From: Escherichia coli
GTDB taxonomy: Bacteria > Pseudomonadota > Gammaproteobacteria > Enterobacterales > Enterobacteriaceae
NCBI RefSeq assembly: GCF_013315695.1
Contig: NZ_CP054353.1
Reading direction: 5' to 3' (one strand)
Length of the DNA stretch: 64,000 nt
The translations under genes were made by a program, and so were the position numbers. Numbering within the stretch: the stretch's first letter is position 1; each line of letters opens with the position of its first letter. The notes under the pieces are model-generated. The model worked only from the letters and a program-made list of their open reading frames with translations. It made no database searches and was not told where the DNA came from. Below, one piece after another: positions 16,154 to 16,966 of the stretch.

Positions 16154-16966
16154 TTATCCTTCTCGTGCAAATTGTGCCGCCTCAGCAATCAGTTGCGCAT
16201 CAGGCCGTACGCCGGTATACATTGCGAACTGCTCGACGGCCTGTAAAGCAATCACCTCCGCACCGCTAATCGTCTGCTTATCAAGCCGTTGCGCCAGGCG
16301 AATGAGCGGCGTTTCCGGCGGCAAGGCCACGACATCAAAAACGACGCTTGCCGTTGAGACCATCGCTTCGCTGAAGGCCAGCTCATGGCTCTCTTTACCG
16401 CCGCTCATGCCAACGGGCGTCACGTTGACCAGAATGTCGCAGGCGATGCCTTCCGGCTGCGGTTGCCACTGAAACCCATACTGCTTCGCCAGCGCCGGGC
16501 CGCTCTCGCGGTTGCGGGCGGCAATGATAACATCCGTAAACCCCGCGTCGCGAAAGGCGGCAATCACCGCTTTGCCCATGCCGCCACTGCCGCGAATCAT
16601 CACTCGCGTGGTGGTATTGAGCTGGTGGTGGGTAATCAGGCTTTTCACCGCGATATAGTCGGTGTTAAACCCGGTCAGCCTGCCGTCGTCATTCACGATG
16701 GTATTCACGGAATCAATGACCTTCGCCGACGGATCGATCGCGTCGAGAAAAGGCATGCAGCTTTCTTTAAACGGCATCGACACAGCGCAACCGCGAATAC
16801 CCAACGCGCGAACCCCTTTCACCGCCGCTGCAATATCCTGGGTGGTGAACGCTTTATAGATGAAATTCAGCCCCAGCTTTTCATAAAGATAATTGTGAAA
16901 ACGCGTGCCGAAGTTACCGGGGCGGCCGGCCAGCGACATGCAGAGTTGAGTATCGCGATTAATCAT
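16154..16966 (-). CDS. shikimate/quinate 5-dehydrogenase (AroE/YdiB)-family protein, last gene of sor operon
   Basis: ORF with SDH-family motifs (SMPFK, NTD, Rossmann GSGGMGKA); start placed at MINRDTQ (ATG 16964-16966) overlapping sorE stop. Confidence 0.75.
   Translation of the reverse strand: MINRDTQLCMSLAGRPGNFGTRFHNYLYEKLGLNFIYKAFTTQDIAAAVKGVRALGIRGCAVSMPFKESCMPFLDAIDPSAKVIDSVNTIVNDDGRLTGFNTDYIAVKSLITHHQLNTTTRVMIRGSGGMGKAVIAAFRDAGFTDVIIAARNRESGPALAKQYGFQWQPQPEGIACDILVNVTPVGMSGGKESHELAFSEAMVSTASVVFDVVALPPETPLIRLAQRLDKQTISGAEVIALQAVEQFAMYTGVRPDAQLIAEAAQFAREG

Follow-up and report, generated by a model that had tools for sequence, protein, structure and literature searches.

The L-sorbose operon described in Klebsiella pneumoniae consists of seven genes, sorCDFBAME, and ends at sorE (Wehmeier and Lengeler 1994). 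In Escherichia coli ST648 strain PBIO730, a further gene of this locus was recently named sdhL (mSystems 2025, PMC12817954). According to the same study, sdhL was induced on L-sorbose with an L2FC of +6.01 for RNA and +6.77 for protein (about 2^6-fold in both), the corresponding values for sorA being 5.67 and 13.02, and its induction is described as being of the same size as that of sorA and sorF. The locus, the name and the induction by sorbose are thus already known from RefSeq and PMC12817954. Here we analyzed sdhL in a 64,000-nt stretch of E. coli DNA (contig NZ_CP054353.1, hereafter the window) and compared it with its homologs in other bacteria.

The founding SdhL is HI0607 of Haemophilus influenzae (PDB 1NPY; Singh et al. 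2005), and its shikimate turnover reportedly lies orders of magnitude below that of AroE. Beyond weak shikimate oxidation, we know of no substrate for any SdhL, and the class has to our knowledge been an orphan since the 2005 structure. E. coli already possesses two enzymes of the wider family, encoded by aroE and ydiB. A more distant relative of the same shikimate dehydrogenase (SDH) family is the 5-ketofructose reductase (KFR) of Tatumella and Gluconobacter (PDB 7COK), which acts on a keto-hexose and not on shikimate; the Tatumella enzyme converts 5-ketofructose to fructose at 1428 U/mg. According to the summary given in PMC3089730, HI0607 oxidizes shikimate with NADP+. An SdhL-class enzyme would be expected to oxidize shikimate slowly with NADP+ and to be inactive on quinate. 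Our own literature searches on sorbose together with shikimate 5-dehydrogenase, and on HI0607, found nothing about function.

Organization of the sor locus and of its last gene

The sor genes of the window lie on the minus strand, in the following arrangement:

16154 to 16966, minus strand: sdhL, encoding a predicted 270-aa SdhL-class (HI0607-type) NADP-dependent dehydrogenase, last sor cistron (PDB 1NPY, E=2e-112; NF009202; K67/D103 conserved)
16959 to 16966, minus strand: overlap of the sdhL start with the sorE stop, ATGATTAA, translational coupling (read from the sequence)
16976 to 16980, minus strand: AGAGG, Shine-Dalgarno-like motif in the sorE 3' end, 9 nt 5' of the sdhL ATG (read from the sequence)
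16959 to 18188, minus strand: sorE, L-sorbose-1-phosphate reductase (RefSeq annotation of the identical sequence; ADH_N and ADH_zinc_N domains)
18240 to 20839, minus strand: sorM, sorA, sorB and sorF, mannose-family PTS IID, IIC, IIB and IIA for sorbose (open reading frames and RefSeq annotation)
20849 to 21655, minus strand: sorD, glucitol-6-phosphate dehydrogenase of the SDR family (domain search; NF004817, 501 bits; RefSeq)
21725 to 22672, minus strand: sorC, SorC-family sugar-binding regulator, first gene of the operon (NCBIfam and RefSeq)

The minus strand of 16154 to 16966 translates into 270 amino acids plus a stop. The sdhL ATG (16966 to 16964) is contained in the 3' end of sorE, which reads ...TCC CAT GAT TAA and stops at the TAA of 16961 to 16959, so that the two genes overlap by 8 nt (in the sdhL frame, the letters are CCC ATG ATT AA). 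This confirmed the preliminary description of the locus, which had reported a 270-aa gene whose start overlaps the sorE stop. An identical coding sequence is annotated by RefSeq as "shikimate 5-dehydrogenase" (WP_000610344.1), directly 3' of sorE in E. coli ST648. A mechanically longer open reading frame of 301 aa (start at 17059) was rejected as the gene because all homologs begin at MINR/KDTQ.

The chromosomal order in the window is aceK-iclR-metH-yjbB-pepE, followed by the sor island and then by rluF. Within the island, sorE-M-A-B-F-D-C lie upstream of sdhL on the same strand, and pepE is located 122 nt downstream. The seven genes and their order are those of the K. pneumoniae operon, except that sdhL follows where the classical description ends. 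The gene is thus indeed additional to the classical list and, as the 8-nt overlap indicates, tightly coupled to sorE. A promoter and terminator scan gave no convincing internal promoter and nothing terminator-like at the sorE-sdhL junction, and found no terminator 3' of sdhL, all matches being at or below the expectation from shuffled sequences. Since induction was measured for both RNA and protein, co-expression of sdhL with the sor genes, which the preliminary description had only suggested, is an experimental fact, and sdhL is a genuine terminal cistron.

Elsewhere in the window, a slipin-family gene (24694 to 25821, plus strand) carries an in-frame stop at codon 215 (LAAN*RYSD), while an intact 375-aa protein is found at the corresponding place of the ST648 RefSeq record. 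Conversely, rluF is intact in the window although it is marked as frameshifted in the ST648 record.

Family assignment of the sdhL product

Pfam searches detected the Shikimate_dh_N (3e-18) and Shikimate_DH (1.5e-5) domains in the sdhL product. The NCBIfam model NF009202 gave 467.5 bits, for a cut-off of 306. The AroE model TIGR00507 gave only 164.6, below its cut-off of 200.2, so that the product did not qualify as an AroE, and the YdiB-type models also remained below their cut-offs (NF009390, 96.2 versus 349; NF010631, 78.6 versus 515). Among solved structures, the best match was 1NPY (HI0607; E=2.1e-112, residues 1 to 268), with an identity of about 66%; the AroE structure 1NYT (5e-14) and the YdiB structure 1NPD (7e-26) followed at a large distance. 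In a neighbor-joining tree, the product grouped with HI0607-like sequences of Pasteurellaceae, far from AroE. Judged by these sequence comparisons, sdhL encodes an SdhL-class ortholog of HI0607, which is neither an AroE nor a YdiB. The earlier label of an AroE/YdiB-family dehydrogenase therefore stands as far as the shikimate dehydrogenase domains are concerned, but the AroE and YdiB models fail where the SdhL model passes, and the phylogeny proposed as a check separates the product from AroE.

Orthology to HI0607 extends over the full length and includes the protein length, the start MINxDTQLCMSL, the catalytic Lys67/Asp103 and the N18/G20/A214 pocket described below. The genomic surroundings are not the same: in Pasteurellaceae, HI0607-type genes come after gpsA-cysE, whereas sdhL is here translationally coupled to sorE and induced by sorbose.

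Substrate pocket of the SdhL class

The pocket was examined in an alignment of 84 SdhLs with AroE of E. coli, the AroE sequence having been checked to be identical to 1NYT. The catalytic pair K67/D103 (AroE K65/D102) was invariant in 84 of 84 SdhLs, as were N88, S63 and Q242 (AroE N86, T61 and Q244), so that the ligands of the substrate hydroxyls are constant too. R151, the NADP arginine, was likewise found in all 84 sequences, and the GSGGMxKA Rossmann motif was present. SdhL thus shares with AroE and YdiB of E. coli the fold family, the catalytic Lys/Asp, the equivalents of Asn86 and Gln244, and the NADP-binding Arg. In contrast to AroE, Ser14 is replaced by N18 (83/84), Ser16 by G20 (84/84) and Tyr215 by A214 (84/84). 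In published AroE and plant DHQ-SDH structures, these three residues bind the shikimate carboxylate. Their replacement, together with the retention of the catalytic residues, argues that the redox machinery is intact and the carboxylate site gone across the whole SdhL class. The pocket thus differs from that of AroE, in line with the altered substrate specificity that the preliminary description had envisaged as one possibility and proposed to check through the binding residues.

These data bear on the simplest alternative, namely that SdhL is a true shikimate dehydrogenase isozyme that boosts aromatic amino acid synthesis during growth on sorbose. The family assignment fits, and so do the oxidation of shikimate by HI0607 as summarized in PMC3089730 and the fact that PMC12817954 lists sdhL together with shikimate-pathway and trp genes rising on sorbose. 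Nevertheless, the three AroE carboxylate ligands are replaced in 83 to 84 of the 84 SdhLs, the TIGR00507 score lies below its threshold, and strain ST131 shows the same aroL/trp response without sdhL (PMC12817954). In addition, aroE and ydiB are already there in E. coli, and the shikimate turnover of HI0607 is reportedly orders of magnitude below that of AroE. We therefore consider an isozyme unlikely, and shikimate is probably not the physiological substrate of SdhL, as judged from the pocket.

We then compared the 24 sor-linked with the 55 unlinked SdhLs. Seventy of the 270 positions were invariant, and only positions 4, 99 and 165, all outside the pocket, separated the two groups. Because no more than these three positions discriminate between them, we rejected the idea of a sorbose-specialized SdhL subfamily.

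The match of the sdhL product to the 5-ketofructose reductase 7COK was distant (2.3e-16) and began at residue 35, leaving the N-terminal motif outside the alignment. N18 occupies the position of the first Ser of this motif. The 5-ketofructose reductase studied by Nguyen et al. in 2021 reportedly has an Asn (Asn21) replacing this first Ser, which may be compared with N18 of SdhL.

sdhL is an ancestral eighth cistron of enterobacterial sor operons

To survey the gene context, an SdhL profile was run against one genome per species, which gave 80 loci. In 20 of these, sorC-D-F-B-A-M-E were located directly upstream of sdhL. The linked loci belong to Pseudocitrobacter, E. coli, E. albertii, seven Citrobacter species, Raoultella, Enterobacter sp., Serratia sp., Entomohabitans and Klebsiella, the latter represented by K. 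spallanzanii, K. indica and K. michiganensis. A search anchored on SorE added a K. variicola/K. pneumoniae-complex genome, in which sorE and a PF08501 gene overlap by the same 8 nt. With K. variicola and one further lineage, the order sorCDFBAME-sdhL was found in at least 22 enterobacterial genomes, so that the co-occurrence that had been proposed as a check on the locus does recur. In this further lineage, a more divergent sor operon, with a SorE of 73% identity, has an sdhL of the Yersiniaceae type behind it. The SorE-anchored search found no sdhL at the sor loci of E. fergusonii, E. roggenkampii, Yersinia vastinensis and Enterococcus, and Mangrovibacter carries an independent sdhL remnant.

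The overlapping junction of the window recurs in Pseudocitrobacter, Klebsiella, Raoultella, Enterobacter and Serratia sp.; in Citrobacter, a TAA precedes the sdhL ATG by 1 nt. Nearly all linked junctions overlap or abut in this way and retain GAGG or GGAG at the equivalent place. In the tree, the Enterobacteriaceae SdhL clade consists wholly of members that are sor linked or flanked by sor relics, and a second clade (Yersiniaceae and Pectobacteriaceae) includes one sor-linked member and two relics. Overall, sdhL lies on the same strand as the sor genes, with neither gap nor terminator and in an order conserved across genera, and it is an ancestral eighth cistron of enterobacterial sor operons, Klebsiella included.

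In two loci with intact sdhL, the sor genes themselves appear shortened: SorE aligns over only 247 aa in the E. albertii type strain (L008, 1517 to 2257), and SorD over only 177 aa in L007 (4068 to 4598). Both genomes thus seem to have disrupted sor genes but an unbroken sdhL.

Most E. coli strains carry a deletion scar

We next looked at sdhL within E. coli. A sorE gene was found in 2866 of 5426 complete genomes, but only 176 of these genomes (6% of those with sorE) had an intact sdhL, 175 of the copies being near-identical. A 113-nt scar was instead found in 2574 genomes, that is, 90% of the sorE-positive ones. In the sorE-pepE spacer of CFT073 and O157:H7, this scar consists of the first ca. 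58 nt of sdhL fused to the last ca. 55 nt, and codon 7 of the scarred gene has changed from CAA to TAA. The scar therefore reflects one shared deletion of about 700 bp from an ancestral sdhL, and not an insertion in ST648. The sdhL of PBIO730 is the same gene as that of the window, and ST648 genomes carry identical DNA; however, where PMC12817954 places it "upstream", as an ST-specific insertion, we find a 3'-terminal cistron and a scar in other STs.

By its own account, the preliminary description would be refuted if the gene were absent from most sor operons and a common neighbor of pepE in unrelated contexts. The first holds for E. coli, most sor operons of which lack an intact sdhL, but not for the other enterobacterial sor operons sampled, most of which contain it. 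As for the second, sdhL adjoins pepE only because the sor island sits there.

The allele of the window is itself mosaic:

16031 to 17151: mosaic block comprising the spacer, sdhL and the last ca. 190 nt of sorE (sliding-window identity; dS)

This block is 87 to 93% identical to other E. coli, compared to 96 to 100% for the flanking pepE and the remainder of sorE. JNEC-KY178, which has the only other intact sdhL allele of E. coli, is 91% identical to it. Between the window and JNEC-KY178, dS was 0.37 for sdhL, 0.11 for sorE and 0.04 for sorC, with neighboring genes ranging from 0.04 to 0.21. The divergence of the block and the raised dS of sdhL point to either an old polymorphism or an import by recombination as the origin of the ST648-type allele. 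A near-identical donor of the block was not found among the sampled species.

The intergenic region next to sdhL varies in length. The sdhL-pepE spacer (16032 to 16153) measures 122 nt in the window and 265 nt in JNEC-KY178, and the sorE-pepE spacer measures 381 nt in CFT073 and O157, so that these strains have ca. 150 to 170 bp of extra intergenic DNA relative to the window strain. When the longer sdhL-pepE spacers of other strains were searched for inverted repeats, nothing useful came up.

Strains without sdhL nevertheless use sorbose. The seven sor genes of CFT073 (c4981 to c4987), which come without sdhL, suffice for growth of DH5alpha on sorbose, and the forward cloning primer of that construct falls inside the scar. 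Similarly, ST131 grows on sorbose without the gene (PMC12817954). Hence, sdhL is not required for growth on L-sorbose and is a co-expressed but dispensable accessory cistron. The preliminary description had proposed an as yet undescribed redox step in sorbose or ketose metabolism. We saw no sign of a required or sorbose-specific step, given the growth on sorbose without sdhL, the prevalence of the scar and a pocket equal to that of the Pasteurellaceae orthologs.

sdhL is retained where sor genes have been lost

Several loci contain sdhL with only traces of the operon. In Kluyvera, only a SorC-like regulator (70% identity) precedes sdhL, at the same chromosomal site. Pluralibacter has kept sdhL and only the last ca. 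40 nt of sorE, and Brenneria combines sorC, a broken sorD and a C-terminal SorE remnant (E=1e-21) with an intact sdhL. A truncated sorC adjoins sdhL in Serratia silvae. Finally, on a low-GC Firmicute-like contig, a SorC-family regulator and sdhL form a two-gene unit. Taken together with the scars, the relics show that sdhL has repeatedly disappeared from loci that kept the sor genes, and the sor genes from loci that kept sdhL.

Such regulator-sdhL modules (L084, 2839 to 4788; L093 to L095) occur on contigs of low GC content, next to ahpC-ahpF and a transposase of the IS240 family. One of these contigs, L084, is labeled Sphingomonas, but its proteins look Firmicute-like, and it is therefore probably a contaminant.

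No metabolic clue emerged from the neighborhoods of the 55 SdhL loci that lack sor genes. In Pasteurellaceae, the gene is preceded by rhodanese-secB-gpsA-cysE and followed by a nucleoside phosphorylase and a HerA-like ATPase, with no sor genes nearby. Yersiniaceae loci have exbBD, a gene resembling alkB or a LacI-type regulator as neighbors. Directly upstream of sdhL in Serratia proteamaculans and S. grimesii (L077; L080, 8914 to 9957) lie a LacI-family regulator and four further genes of the same strand. Two opposite-strand open reading frames of 111 and 119 aa separate sdhL from pepE in Kluyvera (L016, 10839 to 11505) and recur in a Citrobacter locus; they look like a candidate toxin-antitoxin pair.

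The dN/dS of sdhL was 0.05 to 0.10 in every comparison, similar to that of sorE, sorD and pepE, and was 0.054 at a dS of 0.84 between two Kluyvera. By this measure, sdhL is functional and under purifying selection, including after the loss of the sor genes. One could still suppose, from its deletion in 90% of sorE-positive E. coli, that the gene is a decaying, functionless relic in the window strain. Yet the reading frame is intact, its dN/dS against four relatives is 0.05 to 0.07, 175 near-identical copies exist in complete genomes, and the protein was detected and induced (PMC12817954). The detection of the protein and the dN/dS exclude a dead gene, and we regard functional decay as extremely improbable.

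The same contexts raise the alternative of a dedicated extra step, in which SdhL would reduce or oxidize a sorbose-related keto-sugar and thereby widen or protect the pathway. Examples of such substrates would be L-sorbose itself, 5-keto-D-fructose with or without phosphate, or a by-product of the SorE reaction. Co-induction with the sor genes speaks for such a step, as do the sor linkage in two SdhL clades with sor relics beside sdhL in others, the SorC-sdhL modules and a pocket devoid of carboxylate ligands; KFR, matched at 2e-16, provides a precedent within the SDH family. However, growth on sorbose does not depend on sdhL, the gene is retained in the absence of the PTS, sorE and sorD, and the same pocket occurs in Pasteurellaceae outside any sor context. 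Moreover, 7COK is a weaker match than ordinary AroEs, and the Tatumella enzyme is inactive on L-sorbose with NADPH. We thus see a dedicated step as a minor possibility.

DISCUSSION

Taken by itself, the gene is of modest interest, since its family is known, its annotation exists and the pathway runs without it. What is new here is its status as the ancestral eighth cistron, the scar common to most E. coli, the mutually independent losses, and the class-wide replacement of the carboxylate site. In addition, the published interpretation as an insertion specific to ST648 needs correction in the light of the comparison, because the gene is ancestral and most E. coli are scarred.

We consider it fairly likely that sdhL encodes an SdhL-class accessory enzyme, the eighth sor cistron, which acts outside the core route and catalyzes the same reaction as SdhLs of bacteria without sor genes. 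By its sequence, SdhL is an NADP(H) oxidoreductase of the Rossmann fold that has kept the catalytic Lys/Asp of the shikimate dehydrogenases but not the carboxylate-binding triad. Its gene is read from the sor promoter under the control of SorC, with translation coupled to that of sorE, and the protein accordingly appears only with L-sorbose. The core route leads from sorbose via sorbose-1-phosphate and glucitol-6-phosphate to fructose-6-phosphate, and the step performed by SdhL is not among these. We infer that SdhL most likely interconverts a secondary alcohol and the corresponding ketone on a cyclic polyol or keto-sugar that is neutral and carries no carboxylate, and that additional capacity for this reaction would help under some conditions of sorbose use. 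Control by sorbose seems to pay off in some settings, whereas in others it is readily lost.

The conserved sor linkage in two clades, the tight coupling and the SorC-sdhL pairs could mean that the substrate is related to sorbose or another ketose after all. In its specific form, in which SdhL is a keto-sugar or polyol oxidoreductase whose true substrate is sorbose related, we find this idea distinctly doubtful. The candidates would be 5-keto-D-fructose or its PTS product, which would be reduced to a phosphate of sorbose or fructose, or a toxic compound formed on the side in sorbose-1-phosphate metabolism.

For the SdhL class as a whole, a sorbose operon or a SorC-type regulator is the one recurrent functional context that we have found. 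Neutral keto-sugars and polyols thereby become the substrates of first choice for testing, and the sor/SorC linkage is a usable lead toward the substrate of SdhL. Were a sorbose-related substrate to prove true, it would provide, via the sor linkage, the first physiological function for the SdhL class.
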